DNA of 64,000 nucleotides from Octopus vulgaris (Eukaryota): the NCBI GenBank assembly GCA_951406725.2, contig OX597828.1, positions 8,370,001 through 8,434,000 on the forward strand, read 5' to 3'. This document shows, one piece after another, positions 14,377 through 58,964 of this stretch; the stretch's first letter is position 1; each line of letters begins with the position of its first letter. The notes under the pieces were generated by a model that had not been told where the DNA came from, searched no databases, and saw only the letters and a program-made list of their open reading frames with translations. Position numbers and translations under genes: made by a program.

Positions 14377-15354
14377 TATCAGGTCACCCCCATAAGTTCT
14401 GTCCGAATTTTGGATAAAGAAAACGAGTGATCAAATGTTATATTTAATTGAAATTTAATCATCAATGTACTTTCCCTGATTATCTATGACTTCCTTCCAT
14501 CTATTTACAAACTTTTTAATCCCATCATTGTAAAACTATTTTGGTTTCAAAACAAAGAACTCTGAAACGTCAGTTTCTATCTCCTCCTGGCTTGCGAAAT
14601 GTAAGTCCCCCAAATGATTATGTAAATTACGAAACAAATTTTAATCTGAAGGAGCAAGGTCGGGAGAATAAGATGGATGAGAAAAATGTTCCCAACCAAG
14701 CTCTTCGATCTTCTGTGGTGTGATCTTTGCAGTGTGAGACCGCGCATTGTCCTGATGAAACATCACTCCTTTTCGATTCACTAAAGCGGGTTTTTTCACT
14801 TCAAAACTTGGATTCATGAGGCACCCATTTGCCAAGTTTAGGAAACTCTCCAAGTTATTGAAGATGACGATGAACAGTTGTATGGCTTGAACTAAGCTTT
14901 ATTGCCAATTCTTCAACTGATAAAACAGGATTTTCTTCAACTAATGCATCAGGGAGCTTATCATCAAAATCAACTGGACGTCCTGTTCGATCTTCATCTT
15001 CAAGGCTGATGTCTCCACTTCTGAATTTTGCAAACCATCTTCTGCAAGTTCTTTCATTCAAGCATTCTTTCTCATAAACTGAGTGTAAGTTTCTGTCGCT
15101 TCGGCTGCAGAGTTTCCTTTTTTGTACTCATAAAGCATCATGTGCCTCAAATGCTCTTTGGATACTTCCATGTTAGAAAGGGCTTTAATTCAAGAAATTT
15201 TGATTCTATTATTCTGCAAAATAATATTCAATTAATTTAAATTTACACAAATGTATAAAGATAATTTTAAAAACCCATTAGACATTCTAAAGTACTATTA
15301 AATTTCAATCAATTTTAAAAATGGTAAAATCGTACAGAACTTATGGGATGATTT

Positions 15355-15660: not shown

Positions 15661-15832
15661 TAGAATGGTTGTATACTGTCAATCTAACTCGAACGTGACA
15701 TTAGGGGGGTACACCACCGCTGTATAGCCCTAGGAAACATCGACGCCTCCTGATGGCTTCCTAGGGCTATACAGTGGTGGTGTACCCCCTACTGTCACGT
15801 TCGTGTTAGATTGACAGTATACAACCATTCTA
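15661..15832. repeat. Long near-perfect hairpin (about 80 bp arms, 10 nt loop) in (TA)n
   Basis: TAGAATGGTTGTATACTGTCAATCTAAC...CCCTAGGAAACATC, loop GACGCCTCCT, then GATGGCTTCCTAGGG...GTTAGATTGACAGTATACAACCATTCTA. Confidence 0.92.
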
Positions 15833-15882
15833 TCGCCCCACCACCGTACATGTCTCTACGAGAGATTTAGAAATTTAGTATT

Positions 15883-15923
<41 letters not shown>

Positions 15924-19056: not shown

Positions 19057-19060
<4 letters not shown>

Positions 19061-19221
19061 AGATCGTTAGCCACTACATACATTTTTCTTGTTTTTTCTG
19101 TGTCCCTTTCTGTAGAAGAGCGTAGGCTCGAAACGTAAAAGACTTTTTCTATTCCTGAGCGTTATAATATGTTTGTTTTGTACACCACCTGTCTTCGTCT
19201 TTTGTTTTTCTCGTAAACTAT

Positions 19222-19224
<3 letters not shown>
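19057..19224 (+). mobile_element. HHR-bearing short insertion in (TA)n (retrozyme or solo PLE terminal repeat, family 1)
   Basis: 168 bp island between two TA runs. Contains an HHR-like motif and the TTCCTGAGCG motif shared with the 38496, 41803 and 52317 copies. Confidence 0.7.
19106..19141 (+). ncRNA. Minimal type I hammerhead ribozyme motif (variant core)
   Basis: cttt-CTGTAGA-A-GAGC(gtag)GCTC-GAAA-CG-TA-aaag. Stem I cttt/aaag, stem II GAGC/GCTC, palindromic ACGT stem III. A6 is replaced by U and there is an extra A after A9. Confidence 0.65.
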
Positions 19225-31879: not shown

Positions 31880-32690
31880 GGTTTCAAATCTTGGCACAAA
31901 GCCAGCAACCATGAGGGAGGGATAAACTGATCACATCGACACTAGTTCTTGACTGTTACTTAGTTTATCGACCCAGAAAGGATGATAGGCAAGGTCGAAC
32001 TCGGCGTGATTTCAGCTCAGAAATTAAAGACGAACGAGATGCTGGTATGCATTTTGACCGGTGTTCTAATAGACTTCAAGTAATAATATCGGTTTCAGAT
32101 TGTGGCACAAGGCAAATAATTACGGGGAAGTTGATTACATCGACCATAGGCTTCAAATGGCATTTATCTATCGACTTCTGAAAGGAAAAATAAAAATGGC
32201 AACTGTATTCTGTACACAGAACGTAATGACAAATGATGCAACGTATTTTGACCTGCGTGCTAGCAATTCTTTTCTCCTTTGGCACAAGGCCCTGAATTTT
32301 GGGGCAGAGGACCGGTCGATTAGACCGACCCCATCACGCAACTGGTACTTAATTTATTGACCTCGAAATGATGAAAGGCAAAATCGACATCGGTGGAATT
32401 TGAACTCAGAACGTAAAGATACGAAATATCGCTAAGCATTCTTTTCTACTCTAGACACAAGACCCGAAATTTTGGGGGAAGGGGCCAGTCGATTAGATCG
32501 ACCCCAGTAGGCAACTGGTACTTAATTTATCGACACCGAAAGAATGAAAAGCAAAGTGGACCTCGGCGGGATATGAACTCAGAATGTAAAGACAGACGAA
32601 ATGCCGCTAAGCATTTCACCCGGCATGCTAACCATTCTGCCAGCTCGCCACCTTTGCGTGCTAGCAAATTCTGAAAACCCATCACCCTAT
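31880..32690 (-). mobile_element. Cluster of four SINE family B copies (tandem and nested)
   Basis: Four repeats of the GGCACAAG..GTCGATT..GAAAGGCAAAGTCGAC..TGAACTCAGAACGTAA module. TGCGTGCTAGCAA is duplicated at 32254 and 32655 around the inner copies. Confidence 0.88.
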
Positions 32691-34330: not shown

Positions 34331-34616
34331 CATTTGTATGCACATGTGTGCTTATGAGTGTGAGTTTGTATGTGTGTATATGTGCAAGCATCGGTGTGCG
34401 TGTATACATCTATATGTGAGTATGTGTGTACGTGTTTATATATGCGATTGAAAAATACATATGTGTACATACATACATACACATACACATTTACTCACAC
34501 TGATATATATATATATATGTAACTTTTTACGTAAATACATGTAATAGAATAAATATAACTGACTGATTATATTAGTGTGTATGTGTGTGCATATTTATAT
34601 AAAAGTGTGTGTATGT

Positions 34617-34699
<83 letters not shown>

Positions 34700-35181
34700 C
34701 ACACACACTATATTTATATATATCGACATATAGACATATACAAACGAGTATTCGCACACAATATACGCATGTGAAATACAATAGTGTGTACAACACATTA
34801 AAATTGCAAATAGTTGAATTATCGCTTGTTTTCTTACTCGGTTCTATTTGAGTTTGGTTGATATCTTGTATACTTTCATGGGTTTGCGTTACTCGAAAGA
34901 TAAGTTTGTATATTTACTTTACCATATATTTCTATTTTTGTTGTTTTTTTTTTTGTTCATTGAATTCTTGTTTTTGCGAAGTAAAAATATTCAAATTTTC
35001 TAAAATTTTAAATTTATCTTTGTTTTATTATTAGGTTTAACAGTGAACAATGTTGGTCTATGTTATTTTCTCGTATATCATTTAGCTGATAACGAGACCC
35101 CCTTTGGAAAAATTTGATACAAACATACATACAATGTGTGTGTTCGCATACGATTATATTTGTGTGTAATAGGTAATTTCA

Positions 35182-35270
<89 letters not shown>

Positions 35271-35278
<8 letters not shown>

Positions 35279-36157
35279 TCAATATAGGGTGGCAAGGAAA
35301 ATTTTATATGGGAAAAAATTAAATAGTCATATTTTTAATCAACATTATATAATATTCACCCACTAGAAATAACAGCCAAATACCGCAAATAAAGATCAAT
35401 AAACAGGAGAAAATTAAAAAACATTTATAATATATACCGTTTCATCTGCTGTTTATAAACTAACCTGATTAAATTAAATCAAGCCAATCTTCCATAAGCC
35501 CTCAGATTCTTCAGCAAGAAATAGCTCAAGTCGGAACAGATATTTACACGAGGCATACCCAATCCTGCCAAGGCAATATCTGACCTAAAATTTTCAAATC
35601 GTCGCACTCGCGCCAAATTTATCGGCAGCAAATAAATCGTCGATTCCATTACGGAATTAACCAAAAAATTCATAATTAATCAATATAGGGTGGCAAGGAA
35701 AATTTTGCAGAATTTTTTTGCCACCAGCGGCCCAGTGGGAAAAAATTAAATAGTCATAGACCATTTTTAAGTTCAACATTAACAATTAAGGAACGGCCAT
35801 AATAGGCCATTCACCCACTAGAAATAACAGCCAAAGCTTCTACCGCAAATAAAGATCAATTCCGTAAACAGGAGAAAATTAAAAAAACATTTACCCTGTA
35901 ATTTCTTGTACGGTATACCGTTTCATCTGCTGTTTAATGGTAAACTAACCTGATTAAATTAAATCAAGCCAATCTTCCATAAGCCCTCAGATTCTTCAGC
36001 AAGAAATAGCTCAAGTCGGAACAGATATTTACACGAGGCATACCCAATCCTGCCAAGGCAATATCTGACCTAAAATTTTCAAACGTCGCACAAATTTATC
36101 GGCAGCAAATAAATCGTCGATTCCATTACGGAATTAACCAAAAAATTCATAATTAAT

Positions 36158-36164
<7 letters not shown>
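35271..36164 (-). mobile_element. Tandem two-monomer HHR-containing element in (TA)n (retrozyme-like, family 3)
   Basis: ATAATTAATCAATATA recurs at 35271, 35672 and 36149, giving units of 401 and 477 bp. Each unit carries an HHR core on the minus strand. TA runs on both sides. Confidence 0.85.
35901..36007 (-). ncRNA. Canonical type I hammerhead ribozyme with 58 nt stem II loop
   Basis: Minus strand: ATTTCTTG-CTGAAGA-ATCTG-(58 nt)-CAGAT-GAAA-CGGTATACCG-TA-CAAGAAAT. 8 bp stem I, all core nucleotides present. Confidence 0.9.
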
Positions 36165-36187
<23 letters not shown>

Positions 36188-36192
<5 letters not shown>

Positions 36193-36347
36193 GAAACTGA
36201 CTTATTGAAGTCCACCTGAAGATTGTCGATCAAGACAAGAAACGATTGTAGTGGCGGTTTTTTTGACTATTTATTAAAATTTTATGTATTGATTAAGTCT
36301 TTCCTTGTTTGTTTTGCAAAATAGTGGTTTTGTCTCTAATAATATTT

Positions 36348-36353
<6 letters not shown>
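36188..36353 (+). mobile_element. HHR-bearing short insertion in (TA)n (family 4)
   Basis: About 165 bp island between TA runs with an intact HHR and a T-rich 3' part. Confidence 0.75.
36212..36254 (+). ncRNA. Canonical minimal type I hammerhead ribozyme
   Basis: CCAC-CTGAAGA-TTGTC(gatcaa)GACAA-GAAA-CGATTG-TA-GTGG; predicted cleavage after 36250. Confidence 0.9.
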
Positions 36354-36424
<71 letters not shown>

Positions 36425-36889
36425 CATATATATATATATGTATATGTATATTTACATATATATATGTTACATTCAAGTATTGCTAACTTTTTCCTGTGTG
36501 TATATGTGCGTATCATCTTTTTTGTTTTGCATTCAAGCTGTCGGTGCAAAATACCCGTCTTGTATTTAAAACATACGTGTCAAAAGAAAGACTACCCATG
36601 TCTGATACAGTACCTTGATTTTCATAAATAAGTTTGAAGTAAATTTATAAGTTTAGAATGATTTTCTTAGAAGCTATATACTCAACTGGACATCATGACA
36701 ATCAAACATAAATTTAAATAATCATGAAATTCTGAAACAGATATGCTATTTACCAATATTATGACGGAGTTTTCCTTTCCGCATTTCGGCAAGTCTGTCT
36801 TTCTGATGTTGAGATTGTAAAGAAAGTGCCAAGACACTGTACGACAACCGGAGTAGTTCAATGGCTAAGACAAATAAAAGAGTAAAATA

Positions 36890-36977
<88 letters not shown>

Positions 36978-36988
36978 ATCTATCTATC

Positions 36989-37210
36989 GAGACCATTCGA
37001 CATCGCACTTTCGGTCCGTCAGGGATGCCCCCTCTCGTCGCCTCTGTACGTATTGACTCTCGAGCCATTATTGCGGAAGCTGGCAACTCTGAGGGGCATC
37101 CCGCGAGAACTGGGATGCGGGACCAGCGTGTCTGCATACGCGGACGACGTCACTGTCATAGTGTCTAGCCACGAGCACATCGAGCAGGTCGGCTAGACAC
37201 TGAAAAACTA
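36989..37210 (+). pseudogene. L1/Tx1-clade LINE reverse transcriptase fragment
   Basis: SVRQGCPLSSPLYVLTLEPLLRKL...SAYADDVTVIV motifs; a stop follows. Confidence 0.88.
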
Positions 37211-37335
37211 TCGACCCCGAAAGGATCAAAGGCAAAGTAGACTTCGGTGGAATTTGAACTCAGAATGTAACGTCAGACGAAAAACGGCTACGCATTTCGA
37301 CCGACGTGTTAACGTTTCTGGCAACTCGCCGCCTT
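37210..37335 (-). mobile_element. SINE family B 5' half
   Basis: ATCGACCCCGAAAGGATCAAAGGCAAAGT..TTTGAACTCAGAA..CTCGCCGCCTT. Confidence 0.85.
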
Positions 37336-38230
37336 CCTCCTCTTAACCATAAGTCTAGCCTAGTGCCCATTTGACCGTTGTTCTCATGTGTGTTGTGTCG
37401 ATAAGCTACAGAAGGACTTAAACAGCCCCGTACCACTTATATCATTGTCTACTCCCCCATAACCTTTACTTATTTTCTTATGTATTTTGTCTTTATTTAC
37501 ATATCGATTGTAACAGTATTACCTCATGCCCTAGGTTCAAATATAATCGACCAATTGCAAAGATCGCTTGACTTAACCCGTCTCATTGCGGACAACACGT
37601 GGGGTTCTCTGAAATATTTCTGTGAGTACACTATCTTAAGCACTATAAGGTAATATCTTGGACACATTGCAACTTAAGTTTTTTCGTTAGCATAGATAAT
37701 TCCCTTTAACAGTCATGCTAGCAAGTTTCCTTCTAGTTTTTTTTAATGATAATTTCTTTTCATAAATTGTTGAAACATCTTGGTTCTCTCTTATATTGGA
37801 ATTACCCTCAAATATCTTTTTACTCCCTGGACCAGTACTTCATAGCCCTACTCTTACTTCATAGCCCTAAGATGGTAGATTATATGCGTTTCATGTTTAG
37901 GCTTCCAGAACTTCTTTTCTCGGCCATATTCTCTTTCCTATTACTCATTCATTTTCTTTATTTTGGATGCTTTCGTTTTACTCTGCTGAAGCACCGTGCT
38001 CTGAATTTTATTTCCGCAATTATTTGTAAACATTGATCGGCACCGGATGCGGAAATAACCGTAAGATTTCTTATGTCATATAAATATCATGACATGTTTT
38101 GTATGAAAGAATAAGCTATAAATGTGGTCCATGGGTAACATGGGTAACGGATACCGATAATATATACGGATATTTTATCCTTTAGTCGGGTATTATAACC
38201 GCTAACTCTGATTACGTACATACATATACA

Positions 38231-41802: not shown

Positions 41803-42011
41803 TGTGACCGCGTGTGTACTGTTGGCGATTTTTTCCCTCCGTCTTCCCTTCCTTGGATCTTTCCTTTTCGTATGTTTCTAACAAAGAGCTCCGCTCAAAA
41901 CGTTATATCCTCCTTCTTTCTTTCATTTCATGAGCGTTTAGTAACACTATACTCGTTCCACGTCTTCGCGTTGTTGTGCTTTCTCTTTGTGTTTTCATGT
42001 TTGGTTTAACC
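41803..42011 (+). mobile_element. HHR family 1 element with decayed ribozyme
   Basis: gttt-CTAACAA-A-GAGC(tcc)GCTC-AAAA-CG-TT at 41874-41904 (G>A decay of the core). The body aligns with 52317-52443 and ends in (TA)n. Confidence 0.7.
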
Positions 42012-42173: not shown

Positions 42174-42390
42174 TATAAATATATTTAAAGAGAATAATTA
42201 ATAATTTATCCCTTATGGGGTTTTTCACGCTAACTATTTGATATATTCTAAAGCACTTATCTTATTTTTATATTGTATATATATATTAGAAAAAATGAGG
42301 TAATCAGATCGGATGGTTCATATTCGTAGATATTTATTTATATATTACAGTTTTTACATATATATCATATCATTCAGATCATATCATTCG

Positions 42391-42429
42391 GATTAGCGCT
42401 TTCTCCCAATCTAGTGGAGTCTTCAAATC
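42391..42429 (-). ncRNA. Minimal hammerhead motif in the PLE terminal repeat
   Basis: Minus strand: gat-TTGAAGA-C-TCC(actagattg)GGA-GAAA-GCGC-TA-atc, with palindromic AGCGCT stem III and C3>U. Confidence 0.65.
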
Positions 42430-43039
42430 AAATCAATTGTGGGGAATTTGAACATTTTATAGTTTCGTAGGAGTGCGGAGGAATAAGACAGTATAAGAGG
42501 TTGAGGAGGAAGTGAGACAGAGGAAACATGTGTGTATGTGTATGTGTGTGTGTGTATATGTGTGTGTGTGTATGTGTGTGTGTGTGTGTGTGCGCGCGTT
42601 TATATCTGAGAGGGAAGAAGTGTTATTTCCGTTGGCCTACTGGACCTCCTGTGGTTTTATAAGAATTTTGGCTCTGTCCATTTTGATGTCACTGAGTGTG
42701 TGTTGTGCGTAGGTTGGCCGGACAAATGTCATTTGGGGTCACACTTTCTATGATCATTTTGTGGAGGTGTGTGTGTGTCTCTGTGTGTCCGTGTGTGTTT
42801 GTGTGTGTGTGTGTGTGTGTGTCTGTGTGTTTGGAGAAGGGGAGAGAGACAAAAAGAGAAAAGGGAAAATAAAAATTTAAAAAAAAATAAAAATATAAAA
42901 ATATAAAAATAAAAAATAAATTTTTTTTTTAAATATAAAAAATAAAAAATAAAAAAACAAATAAAAGTAAGGGAGGAAGTGGAGAAGAAAAATATTTTTG
43001 TGTGTTGATATTTATACCAATACATATATATACACACAC

Positions 43040-43326
43040 AGACTTATACATAAAATATTTGAAAAAAACCTTTTTATCGGTTCAAAATGAACAACCAAAT
43101 TATACCATCTTGAAAATTGTATATCATAGGAAAGTTAAAATTAAAGTGACAATTGAAAGGTAAAGATGGAAGTGAATTATAAAGATAATAATATAATATA
43201 ATGTATATAACAGGTAATACACATATCTATACACACACAGATATATATATATACATATAAACACACAGACATATACTAAATGTTCTACTATATTAGATTG
43301 TAAATCGAAAGATGCGTCCTTCAATG

Positions 43327-43373
<47 letters not shown>

Positions 43374-43645
43374 GCTTACACATGAAATATTAGGGAAAAA
43401 TCCACCTACTAACGAATCAAAATGAACAATCAAGTTACACCATCTTGAAAATTGCATATCATAGGAAGGTTAAAGTTAGAATGACAATTGGCAAGTAAAG
43501 ATCAAGTAAATTGCAAAAACAATATAATGTATGTAACAGGTAACATATATACACACACACACCTATATATATATACACACACACATATATTAAATGTTCC
43601 ACTGTATCATATTGTAAATCAAAAAAAATTTTTTGTCCTTCAATG
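43040..43645. repeat. Diverged direct duplication of about 300 bp in the PLE 3' UTR
   Basis: CAAAATGAACAA..CCATCTTGAAAATTG..ATCATAGGAA..GTCCTTCAATGT occurs at ~43083-43328 and ~43418-43646. Confidence 0.8.
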
Positions 43646-43661
43646 TATGTTGAGTAAAGTT

Positions 43662-44386
43662 TCAGCCATTTAATTTGGGGGAGAACTTAGCTATGAAATG
43701 TTTTTCCATATTCCTCCTGAAGGGGGTGTCGTTCTTCGGACACTTGTAGAAGGGAAATATCTTAAATTTTCCTTGTCCACATGTAGCTAGGTGTGTGCTT
43801 AGTGGTATTTTGCGTAGTTCTTCCTGCCGAATATGTTGTCGGTGGATCCTGGCTCGCTGGCACAAAGAATTACCAGTTTCACCTACGTAATTCTCCTTGC
43901 ACGTGGGGCAGGTTATGCAGTATATGACGTTCTGCGTCTTGCAGTTCATATCTGCATTTACTTTGAATATGTCACCATTTTTAAATCTTATCTCTCTGTC
44001 GCTCTCTATGTATTTGTAGGTGGGGTTGCTGCAGGTCCCACATCTACCATCTCCGCACTCTTTTGCAAAGAATTCCGTTTTAGTTTCTGAAGAGAATTTC
44101 GCTCTTGTTAGGTGTTTTTTTAGGTTTTTGTCCTGTCGTCTACTGTTTTTTATGCTATATTTGTTTAATATGTTTTTCATTTTGGGGCTTTGTAAGGCTA
44201 TTGGTAGGTTTGAATGTATGGTTTGGAAGATGTTGGTAACTCCAGGGTTGTGTGTGTTTATAAAAGGGATAGTGTTTTCTTTGTTTTTTGTTTTGGGTGT
44301 CCTGAGTTGTGTGATGTCTAGTTTTAATGCTCTTGTGATACCATTTTCTATTAGTTTAAGGGGGTATTTTTGCTCTAGGGGGAAGC
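43662..44386 (-). CDS. PLE polyprotein C-terminus: RT thumb/linker, Cys-rich linker and GIY-YIG endonuclease (5'-truncated, no stops)
   Basis: The frame extends upstream of the listed ORF: LEQKYPLKLIENGITRA..IPFINTHNP..; then CGDGRCGTC linker; then CKTQNVIYCITCPTCKENYVGETG..R..H..HLATC..R..E..FI GIY-YIG motifs. Confidence 0.85.
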
Positions 44387-44656
44387 TGATTCACAAATAC
44401 GATTAATAAGACTAGATGAACTCAAAAGCTTCCTCACACACACACACAAAATCACACACGGACACACAGAGACACACACACACACACACCTCCACAAAAT
44501 GATCATAGAAAGTGTGACCCCAAATGACATTTGTCCGGCCAACCTACGCACAACACACACTCAGTGACATCAAAATGGACAGAGCCAAAATTCTTACAAA
44601 ACCACAGGAGGTCCAGTAAGCCAACGGAAATAACACTTCTTCCCTCTCAGATATAA

Positions 44657-44688
<32 letters not shown>

Positions 44689-44830
44689 ATACACACACAC
44701 ATATACACACACACACATACACATACACACATGTTTTCTCTGTCTCACTTCCTCCTCAACCTCTTATACTGTCTTATTCCTCCGCCCTCCAACGAAACTA
44801 TAAAATGTTCAAATTCCCCACAATTGATTT

Positions 44831-44869
44831 GATTTGAAAACCCCACTAGATTGGGAGAAAGCGCTAATC
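44831..44869 (+). ncRNA. Second (inverted) copy of the PLE hammerhead motif, decayed
   Basis: gat-TTGAAAA-CCCC(actagatt)GGGA-GAAA-GCGC-TA-atc. Confidence 0.55.
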
Positions 44870-45144
44870 CAAATGATATGATCTGAATGATATGATATAT
44901 ATGTAAAAAATGTAATATATAAATAAATATCTAACAATATGAACCATCCGATCTGATTACCTCATTTTTTCTAATATATAATACCTGTACATCATCTCCA
45001 AACCTTCCGATATATATATATATATATATATAAAATCAGAACAGGAAAATTACATCAAAAAATCATTACAAGATATACGTCAAAAATAATATTGTATTAA
45101 TAGATAGAGGTATAAATATATGCCTCTGTCTATACCTATATATA

Positions 45145-52299: not shown

Positions 52300-52316
52300 A
52301 TATATATATATATATA

Positions 52317-52443
52317 GACGAAGAGCTCCGCTCGAAACGTTAAACCCTCCTTCTTTCCTTCTTTCATGAGCGTCCAATAATACAATATTTGTTCCACGTC
52401 CTCGCGTTGTTGTGTTTATTTGTGCTTTCTTGTTTGGATTAAC
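52317..52443 (+). mobile_element. HHR family 1 element, 5'-truncated inside the ribozyme core
   Basis: (TA)n|GACGA-A-GAGC(tcc)GCTC-GAAA-CG-TT-aaac...GTTTGGATTAAC|(TA)n. Confidence 0.75.
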
Positions 52444-55861: not shown

Positions 55862-56861
55862 ACCGGGAAGCATTGCAGCAAATACCTCACAAGTTCTACT
55901 CAAAGACCTTGGCCTGCAGATGAGATCAAGACCGTCAGAAAAGAAATGATCTGTGGTAAAGCTCTCGGAGCTGTCGAAATAAACGAACAGTTCGCTGCTT
56001 TCTGTCGCTGGAAAAATCTTGGCCCGCTTCCTATTCAACAGACTCATCACCAGCGTCTCGGAGAGTAACTTGGCAGAAGCTCAGTGTTGCTTCCGCCCTG
56101 GCTGCAACACCATAGGCATGGTGTTTGCTGTGTGTCAAGTCAAGGAAAAGTGTATTGAACAACGGATGGAGTTGCAGTCTTTATTCATAGTCCAGACCAA
56201 AGCTTTTGGCATAGTCAATAGAGAAGCTTTGCGGACCACCCTAACTAAGCTACGCTGCCCACACAATTTCACCACACATATAATACTCTTTCATAACCAT
56301 ACGATCGGTCAAGTTCTTTGCAATGGCGACTGCAACTTTTTCAACATCTCCAGTGGCATGAAACAGAGCTGCATACTTGCCCCCGCCTTGTTCAATTTGT
56401 TCATCACACAGCTCTTGCTTTACGCAATGAATGACCTACACCTGGGCATATACATTACATATCGGTAAGATGGCTCAGTTTCTGACCTCCTCCGACTCTC
56501 TACTCCAACCAAGGCAGTGGAAAAGCTCATTACTGAAACCCTATCTGCAGATGATTATGCCTTTGTGGAACATGAGGTAAATCACATGCAGACATTTGTT
56601 GATTGCTTTATAAAAGCGACGAGGCTTTCTGGACTGATCATCAACCCTGCGAAAATGGAGGTTCTAGTCCAAGCAGCCCCGAACACATTTCGCCCTAGTC
56701 AAACATCAGCATCGAGGGAGTCCAGCTTAAGTGTGAGGAGAGTTTCAAGTAACTTGGCGGCACGATCTCAGACGTCGGATAATTGGACTGCAAAATTTCA
56801 TCCAGAATCCAGAAGGCCAGCCAATCATTTGGAAGGATGAATGGGAAAGGCATTAGACTAA
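55862..56861 (+). pseudogene. RTE-clade LINE reverse transcriptase core, inverted relative to the 3' part
   Basis: GKILARFLFNRL..EAQCCFRPG..KEKCIEQ..TKAFGIVNREAL..GMKQSCILAPALFNLF..SADD..GLIINPAKMEVL..RIQKASQSFGR. Confidence 0.9.
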
Positions 56862-57215: not shown

Positions 57216-58964
57216 TAGGGGTGGACAATTGTTTGAAAGGGCCGTGGTTAGCAGAGTGCTGCTCCTTTTATAACTGATCGTATTCAATAGTTAGCATTAC
57301 ATTTCATTGGATGCGAAGTGGAAATTGCGTAATGATAATAAATGAATAAACTAAAACAATAGTGGTACACAGAAAAGGTTTCATTGAATTTATTTACGTG
57401 CAGATTACACATCAGCCAGCACAAGTAATTTAATGAGACAAATGTAAATTGTCACATGCATTTACAATTGTTTTGAAATCAGAAGTGAGGTTGCTTGTTG
57501 AGATCCTCATCGTTGCCTACAAGTTTGTCAGTCACAGAGTATCTATTTTTAATCTTGTTGATTTTTATGCAAGAAAATCGTTGCTCACAAATATGTGTAT
57601 CCTAAAACAAAAAAAAAAACAACATATTCCCAGAAAATTTCTTCATACATGCACATTTGTCAGTTGATAGAAATTTGTAAAATTCTATCAATAGTACAGA
57701 ATTAAGCAATTCTTTCAACGTGTGATTGGACTACATGTTAGTTCAAGCTACACTTCTTCAGGTGCTGTATTGATATCAGCAGCGAAAAGATAAGATAGCA
57801 AATTTAATCCTGCGTCAATTTTCTTAAAATCCTTAAATCTTATCATGATCTCATTGTCCAAACTAAGCAATTGATCCCTAATCTTGGAAGAAACACTTAT
57901 AGGTACATTTTGCTTTCTTAATAAAGGGAAATGATAAAATTTGCTTTCACCTGCTTGCCTTGTAAATAGGCCTAGTTTTGTTTGATATGATCTCACAGGC
58001 CTAAACATTTCATGTACAAACAATCCATTTCTCAGCAATGTCACGTTCAATTCATTTAATTTCTCTAACGTATCTGCAAAAGTCGTCTCATCTCTACACT
58101 CTTCACATCACATTTTGGCCAAAGAAGACAAAAGAAAACCAAAGAAAAGTTTTACTTGCAGAGTTCTGCTGTTCAGTTAGTTCGTCAATAATTAAGCCTA
58201 TGCACCGCAACATAGTCCTCCTTGATTATGAAATGGTTTAGAATTTGCTTCTTGCGTCAAGGCACCGGAAGCCTGTGCAATCTATCAAGCACCGCTTAAC
58301 AATCTCGCCATCAGAAAATGGCTTGTTGCTTTTAGCGAGGTTGTATGCTACCATGAAGCACCATCCCGAAGTGTCGGTGCTTCGTAAATATGACCTATTG
58401 CTTCTTCAGCTTCGTAACACACTCTTCAGCTTATCTTCTGCTTTCCTCCTCGGACATTTCGCTAGCAAACCCGCCGTATTTTGTTTGGTGGTGTCGTTTG
58501 ACATTGTATTTCTTGAGCACGGAAACCGTCACGTGACACAATAAACACATTGCCTTATTCCCTGAATTACTGAACAAATATTTGTGCATCCAGTCTTCCT
58601 TGAACGCATGGCATTCTTTTTCGATTTTGCGCTTTTTAGGAGGGTTCATATTTTCTCAAGTCAGAGCGTTACAAATCGTACTGTTGCAAAGAGAAAACTG
58701 TTGCGTGTAAAGGGATTGCACATGCGTCGGACGAGCGCATGCGCAGTAGGTATCCGCCTATTAAAACACGAGGATAATTTTCTGTGACACAAAGGAAGCA
58801 GGTATCAGTTCAAGTTAGCGTTGGCACAAGCAGTTTACGGTGATTAGTTTACGAAAATTTTAGACTTATAAAATATTTTTTTATGAATGTCTCCGCAGGC
58901 TACAAAAAACTCTGTGGAGGGACGCAACTGGTTTAGTGGGACCACCAGAATAGAATATTAGTCT
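57216..58964 (-). mobile_element. hAT (Charlie/SPIN/GTF2IRD2-like) transposon remnant
   Basis: N-terminal KKRKIEKECHAFKEDW..CLLC..KYNVKRHH BED finger (58431-58649), NELNVTL..FYHFP..RFKDF (57748-58050) and C-terminal TYICEQ.FS..K motif. TAGGGGTGGACAA TIR-like left end; decayed right end. Confidence 0.85.

Follow-up and report, generated by a model that had tools for sequence, protein, structure and literature searches.

Introduction

Hammerhead ribozymes of metazoan Penelope-type elements (PLEs) are described, in the available part of Cervera and De la Pena (2014; PMC4209133), as mostly solo and heterogeneous motifs with a palindromic helix III that also occur in opposite-strand pairs. A PLE minimal hammerhead (min-HHR) assayed in that part of the study was not cleaved as a monomer and showed low cleavage as a dimer or trimer. 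PLEs with 5′ truncation, inverted copies and an insertion bias for (TA)n are reported in the accessible text of Craig et al. 2021 (10.1101/2021.04.23.441226), which calls the in vivo role of PLE hammerheads still open. The non-LTR retrozymes, in turn, are built from head-to-tail units of 170–400 nt and form circular RNA (available parts of PMC7229834 and of Li, Clavereau, Pollet 2026, 10.64898/2026.07.22.740005), and RNA editing is named there as one possible cause of the heterogeneity of retrozyme RNAs (PMC7229834).

Here, we investigated a short repeat copy with a compact hammerhead, hereafter the island, in a 64-kb window (the whole stretch of DNA that was analysed). We consider it probable that the island is a PLE terminal (pLTR) piece, i.e., the 5′-truncated end of a long element, or else a short non-autonomous derivative, which was put into (TA)n by reverse transcription, and that its hammerhead, silent in the solo copy studied here, acts as a dimer when the parent RNA is tandem.

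A complete type I hammerhead in a TA-bounded island

The island lies between two TA tracts, one of which it shares with a second hammerhead-bearing repeat, family 3, and has the following surroundings:

35181–35273, no strand: (TA)46, adjoining family 3 on its 3′ side (sequence)
35274–36159, minus strand: family 3, two units of ~410 and 485 bp, 5′ end toward the island (sequence comparison)
35901–36007, minus strand: family 3 hammerhead with an 8-bp stem I, a 58-nt loop 2 and a 4-bp palindromic helix III (motif scan)
36160–36188, no strand: (TA)14.5 separating the island and family 3 (sequence)
36189–36352, plus strand: the island, a 164-bp repeat copy of 28% GC with the hammerhead sense on this strand (bounds, run matches, contig alignment)
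36255–36352, plus strand: AT-rich 3′ segment of the island, in which the family varies at 36261–36279 (sequence, contig variants)
36353–36380, no strand: (TA)14 bounding the 3′ end of the island, followed by (TG)19 (sequence)

When both strands of the window were scanned with a descriptor, a 43-nt type I hammerhead with all core bases emerged at 36212–36254 (+), and the only other complete hammerhead in the window was that of family 3 at 35901–36007 (−), in agreement with a relaxed scan. The island motif is composed as follows, all on the plus strand:

36212–36254: type I hammerhead ribozyme motif, 43 nt (motif scan and shuffles; fold of the isolated 43-mer)
36212–36215 with 36251–36254: stem I, four Watson-Crick pairs (sequence)
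36216–36222: core C3–A9, N7 being A (sequence)
36223–36227 with 36234–36238: stem II of 5 bp with the 6-nt loop 2; pair 10.1–11.1 is U-A (sequence)
36239–36242: G12 to A15.1 (sequence)
36242–36249: helix III strand, a self-complementary 8-mer with two G-U wobbles in the window copy (duplex energy, cofold, variants)
36250: H17, the A of a GUA triplet, with the predicted cut on its 3′ side (sequence)

The motif thus has C3 U4 G5 A6 N7 G8 A9, G12 A13 A14 A15.1 and U16.1 H17, together with three helices and an open stem I; helix III is formed by 2 bp with a 4-nt loop, and U16.1 is at 36249. Sequence, coordinates and anatomy agree with the first-pass annotation, which had listed every core nucleotide and perfect stems I and II; the setting that it gave, a 165-bp TA island about 25 bp from family 3, holds with measured values of 164 bp for the island and 29 bp of TA for the distance.

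We conclude that the hammerhead at 36212–36254 is a real motif, beyond chance. Scanning both strands of 300 dinucleotide-shuffled versions of the window gave no compact strict look-alike and two loose ones. That the motif arose by chance or through an assembly artefact has next to no probability, even though Rfam is blind to it and the adjacent family 3 unit has odd GC-rich deletions: besides the shuffles, thousands of related contigs exist in public runs, and an assembly artefact is excluded because one public contig is identical to 36201–36275, i.e., over 75 nt with 0 differences. Rfam gave no match at the gathering threshold in the 64-kb window, and none of the 36 matches at E ≤ 10 in 34500–37500 belonged to a hammerhead family, the family 3 motif being missed as well.

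Comparison with described PLE hammerheads

Like the metazoan PLE hammerheads in the available part of PMC4209133, the island motif is of type I with a 4-bp stem I, a stem II longer than 4 bp and no clear loop 1; it shares with them the palindromic 15.2–16.2 plus loop 3, the membership of a large and mostly solo family, and opposite-strand neighbours. Two traits by which the PLE min-HHR is recognised there are present, namely a short stem I (4–5 bp) whose loop 1 is not well defined and a palindromic 15.2–16.2 plus loop 3 that allows a dimer helix III. Two others are absent: stem II begins right at the 3′ side of A9, with no unpaired base before 10.1 where the min-HHR has an extra base, and U10.1-A11.1 replaces the conserved G-C. 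These absences, which count against derivation from a PLE end, place the motif outside the strict min-HHR consensus, and with its 4-nt loop 3 it is not strictly minimal either. It appears, from its sequence and as far as PMC4209133 is available, nearer to those variants whose helix III is small and palindromic than to the strict min-HHR.

A U-A pair at 10.1–11.1 lowers hammerhead activity. Compensatory changes at 10.1–11.1 are seen in cricket hammerheads in the accessible text of PMC2837043.

Abundance and variation of the repeat family

The repeat family to which the island belongs is very abundant. Of 17 words sampled from it, a fraction of 0.71–0.82 was contained in 20 of the 24 runs among the matches listed; these 20 runs come from 11 studies and carry eight organism labels, one of them is possibly the source sample, and some data sets comprise just 5–6 million letters. 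In four of the 24 runs contigs were aligned to the island (8595, 1134 and 791 in runs X1, X2 and X3, and 40 in X4), most of them less than 99% alike. Other copies, whose absence from the genome the first-pass annotation had named as part of a refutation, thus do exist in large numbers. Depth was higher over the 3′ half of the island, although contig depth gives neither copy number nor a ranking of parts. Pattern scans of sequence collections gave no true relative: in metagenomes one scan yielded 0 loci and another three, which share one identical GC-rich context and have no core upstream, and no locus was found in bacterial genomes; 29 loci in viral contigs were rejected as chance, none having a stem I of more than 1 bp.

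Within the 43-nt motif, G36244A is the sole change that reaches at least 3 in 100 in X1, X2 and X3, where it accounts for 47, 41 and 54 in 100 of the depth, respectively. It turns the 8-nt helix III strand into a perfect palindrome by replacing two G-U pairs with A-U. In the core C3–A9 and at 10.1–11.1 other letters never reach 3 in 100 in these three runs; rarer variants concern loop 2 (insertion of one base, loss of one) and loop 3, and in three contigs of X1 N7 is changed jointly with 10.1 and loop 2. Downstream, 36261–36279 is variable among the family copies, and 36280–36340 has no common variant in X1–X3 and is as uniform as the hammerhead, so that the family may simply be young; that the hammerhead is not uniquely conserved argues against derivation from a PLE end. 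A subfamily in the loose ends of X3 and X4 before 36211 carries ~8 additional bases immediately 5′ of stem I as well as altered loops 2 and 3.

In 24 of the 72 rows of loose ends, inspected by eye, foreign sequence is joined to an internal position from the 5′ side in six and from the 3′ side in one; two of the six 5′-side breaks lie directly on TA runs and one on a TG/TA run. This excess of 5′-side breaks fits the polarity expected from 5′-truncated reverse transcription. It also speaks against the idea, which we regard as highly improbable, that the island is a miniature DNA transposon (MITE) with TA as its target and carries the hammerhead by accident. The first 13–14 nt of the island together with the TA edge do agree, at 12–13 positions, with the reverse complement of a 3′ segment close to the end in family variants, by eye and post hoc; much of this match is, however, A/T, and it is sub-terminal, both variants and the window copy having further family sequence beyond the inverted segment. 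Inspection by eye of the window copy and the family variants did not reveal inverted repeats at both of the true ends, and cut-and-paste elements are not known to make use of a conserved ribozyme.

An explanation that we hold to be unlikely, if less so, is that the island is the solo monomer of a non-LTR retrozyme, in which units of ~165 nt would form arrays elsewhere, be cut by double hammerheads, circularised and reinserted by a PLE. Like non-LTR retrozymes in the available parts of PMC7229834 and 10.64898/2026.07.22.740005, the island is short, AT-rich and non-coding, with a type I hammerhead that would be PLE-related and dimer-dependent. Its ~165 nt fall at the low end of the 170–400 nt range (PMC7229834), monomers are known in retrozyme families, retrozymes derive from pLTRs (10.64898/2026.07.22.740005), and the neighbouring family 3 is such a tandem. 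Unlike the head-to-tail units that give rise to circular RNA in those sources, however, the island is solo in the 64-kb window at 164 bp, and 5′-cut copies of it exist. Nor is a joint between units listed in X1–X4, where the alignments cover the island interior and skip both ends, one joint having been dropped in X4.

Predicted folds and the dimer model

Folds were predicted with an energy model that leaves out tertiary contacts and magnesium. In the isolated 43-mer stems I and II are predicted to form (P 0.6–0.95) and helix III has P 0.04; constructs ending at or before 36258 are predicted to form the stems at P ~0.7. The transcript 36200–36270, which had been proposed for a cleavage assay, is predicted to adopt another fold, with the hammerhead stems at P 0.03, and over the whole island the predicted P of stem I is about 0. 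The cofolding of two copies, by comparison, has as its minimum a double hammerhead of −21.4 kcal/mol, and the duplex of two helix III strands amounts to −5.8 kcal/mol with the G of the window versus −6.4 with the G36244A allele. A palindromic helix III would be the signature of dimer-cleaving PLE hammerheads, and an allele as common as G36244A gives natural support to a dimer model.

The island copy in place is most likely silent, as judged from these models, because the window holds no partner of the same family and the flanks favour another fold; a second island copy was not found in the 64-kb window by blastn. The hammerhead of family 3 would be unusable as dimer partner because it is on the opposite strand, and the cross-duplex of the helix III strands reaches only −1.5. 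We think it improbable that read-through transcripts of this locus are cut by the hammerhead acting as a monomer. It has the full core, and the bare 43-mer, like constructs that end by 36258, is predicted to form stems I and II; against this stand the low predicted P of helix III (0.03–0.04), a stem I that with native flanks has P ≤ 0.03, the U10.1-A11.1 pair, the lack of an evident closing stem or loop 1, and the monomer inactivity of the PLE min-HHR assayed in the available part of PMC4209133. A 2-bp helix III (P 0.04 in the monomer), U-A closing stem II, the wobble allele and the predicted misfolding of 36200–36270 undermine the view that this is the best single candidate for a biochemical test. 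The absence of cleavage, which the first-pass annotation took as part of a refutation, would be a weak one and would not unmake the motif, because the PLE min-HHR in the same part of PMC4209133 remained uncleaved as a monomer.

The neighbouring family 3

Family 3 lies on the opposite strand and is unrelated to the island in sequence, as had been noticed at first sight. Local alignments of the two were no better than those of shuffles (p 0.79 and p 0.40). Common words, tested at 8 letters (p 0.018) and at 10 letters (p 0.16), amount to three to four matches that are not collinear, and on the alignments and the non-collinearity a kinship was rejected. It holds, as first proposed, that two unrelated hammerhead families share one microsatellite. 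This is unsurprising, because the window has 53 TA tracts of at least 16 nt and PLEs have a (TA)n bias. The TA spacer favours two insertions into one tract, although both repeats may also stem from a single event with a template switch.

The two units of family 3 differ by gaps only, with 0 mismatches in 401 nt, and both ends of the tandem break within one short AT-rich motif. From the unit beside (TA)46, 84 nt are missing, which have 58% GC versus 31%, and the 3′ half of its hammerhead is gone with them; this GC-rich gap may be a consensus artefact near the TA tract.

Mobile elements elsewhere in the window

The window is microsatellite-rich and of animal type, and the output of a repeat finder was dominated by microsatellites. 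It contains a PLE and three members of a second minimal-hammerhead family, with bulged A and G10.1-C11.1:

42286–44974: Neptune/Nematis-type PLE insertion, with the 3′ part of its ORF at 43665–44390 on the minus strand (CX4CxxC linker and GIY-YIG)
52315–52443: member of the second minimal-hammerhead family, in a TA tract, cut inside the core
41881–42011: member of the second family, in a TA tract, a decayed copy
19058–19224: more distant member of the second family, in a TA tract, with one core change

The Neptune-type PLE lies 7 kb from the island, adjoins TA tracts, and has a partial tandem downstream of the ORF part (43043–43217 / 43375–43543); the ORF part stands inside 485-bp inverted arms of 95% identity. 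An intact hammerhead was not found inside it (42286–44974). Alignment of the island with this element (42.3–45.0 kb; p 0.48 and 0.86) led us to reject a kinship, which counts against derivation from a PLE end as far as this element is concerned; the element consequently attests to machinery present in the genome and not to parenthood. In the second family the distance from H17 to the TA tract is 102, 104 and 87 nt for the copies at 52315, 41881 and 19058, compared with 102 nt in the island, and its layout is like that of the island, with this spacing of 87–104 nt and variable 5′ ends. The alignment of the island with the island at 52317 has p 0.05.

Several further remnants occur in the window. 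A reverse transcriptase (RT) fragment (Pfam RVT_1, E 1.5e-7) at 36989–37193, directly after a (CTAT)25 tract, is one that we take to be a piece of an L1/Tx1-type LINE, and another RVT_1 piece is at 55983–56465. Tc1/mariner transposase remnants (HTH_48, weak DDE_3) with a Spin-doc zinc finger piece are at 14644–15127 and 58434–58655. The TA-bounded island at 15663–15886 is mostly one long near-perfect inverted repeat, and a short interspersed repeat of ~170–220 bp has more than 10 copies, e.g., at 32266–32657.

Origin of the island

Derivation from a PLE end draws on four observations, i.e., the motif, the high-copy family, the palindrome-keeping allele and the 5′-cut copies; the parent, the insertion mechanism and dimer cleavage are inferred. 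The double hammerhead predicted for two copies, the like layout of the second hammerhead family and the PLE 7 kb away speak for this derivation too. In the proposed course of events, the GIY-YIG endonuclease of a PLE would nick a (TA)n tract, and its RT would copy the RNA starting at the 3′ end, variable stops leaving short solo ends within TA tracts. The 2-bp helix III of one hammerhead would be too weak alone and need a second copy: where the parent is partly in tandem, its RNA would contain two copies, and pairing between their palindromic helix III strands could build a double hammerhead, which would cut after H17 and thereby process the RNA of the element.

The PLE link suggested in the first-pass annotation was the right lead. 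Like the Neptune and Naiad PLEs in the accessible text of 10.1101/2021.04.23.441226, the family is found in (TA)n and has apparently 5′-truncated copies and a head-to-head layout, and a Neptune-type element is present in the window. Unlike the island, the Naiads have no hammerheads according to that text, and the island has no homology to the Neptune-type element. Among the contigs shown, none extends beyond ~24 nt upstream of the motif, which also weighs against a PLE end.

A>G clusters in one sequencing run

None of the runs that contain the family is recorded as RNA. Run X4, which is RNA by guess only, carries the same organism label as X1 and is a different sample; it was compared by eye in a few low-depth contigs. 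Contigs less than 90% alike make up 12 of 40 in X4 versus 387 of 8595 in X1. A>G changes occur in X4 at 36276–36279, with 35 in 100 of the depth at 36276 (five contigs) versus 0.006 in 100 in X1. The loose end of one X4 contig over 36216–36245 reads G for eight of the 13 A of the window, including A6, N7, A11.1 and A15.1, and the sole other change is the common allele. This contig and one more have A>G runs at 36318–36323. The A>G clusters of X4 are on the plus strand only. The end of one A>G contig is presumably a sequencing adapter, and one X4 contig carries two family copies head to head, which would supply a double strand. In the 36216–36245 stretch an A that follows G is found in four of the five unchanged positions versus one of the eight changed ones, and this fits the preference of ADAR given in the available part of PMC4365171.

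The clusters suggest sense transcription and ADAR hyper-editing of family transcripts, including the catalytic core; an equally good account would be bystander editing of the ordinary kind, directed at inverted repeats. A more far-reaching proposal, which we regard as doubtful, is that a short and very abundant hammerhead PLE derivative with the atypical U10.1-A11.1 is transcribed in the ribozyme sense and that ADAR hyper-edits its core (A6, A11.1, A15.1) in every transcript that also contains an inverted copy, so that RNA editing would turn off genomic ribozymes and the processing of the element. No report of RNA editing on genomic hammerheads was found in the literature searched, largely without subscription papers. 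If the clusters are ADAR editing of the core, two processes would be linked that this literature does not pair, and such editing could partly explain the low activity and the sequence heterogeneity of such RNAs.

Significance

The island family is most likely a new family of a known kind, the PLE-type hammerhead, as judged from its sequence. No report of it was found in literature searched largely without subscription papers, and the supplementary alignments of PMC4209133 could already contain the family. It would add one PLE-type hammerhead family, in which the commonest variant of the motif keeps the helix III palindrome. The abundance of the family would let the mapping of 5′-OH or cyclic-phosphate ends probe the in vivo role in bulk.
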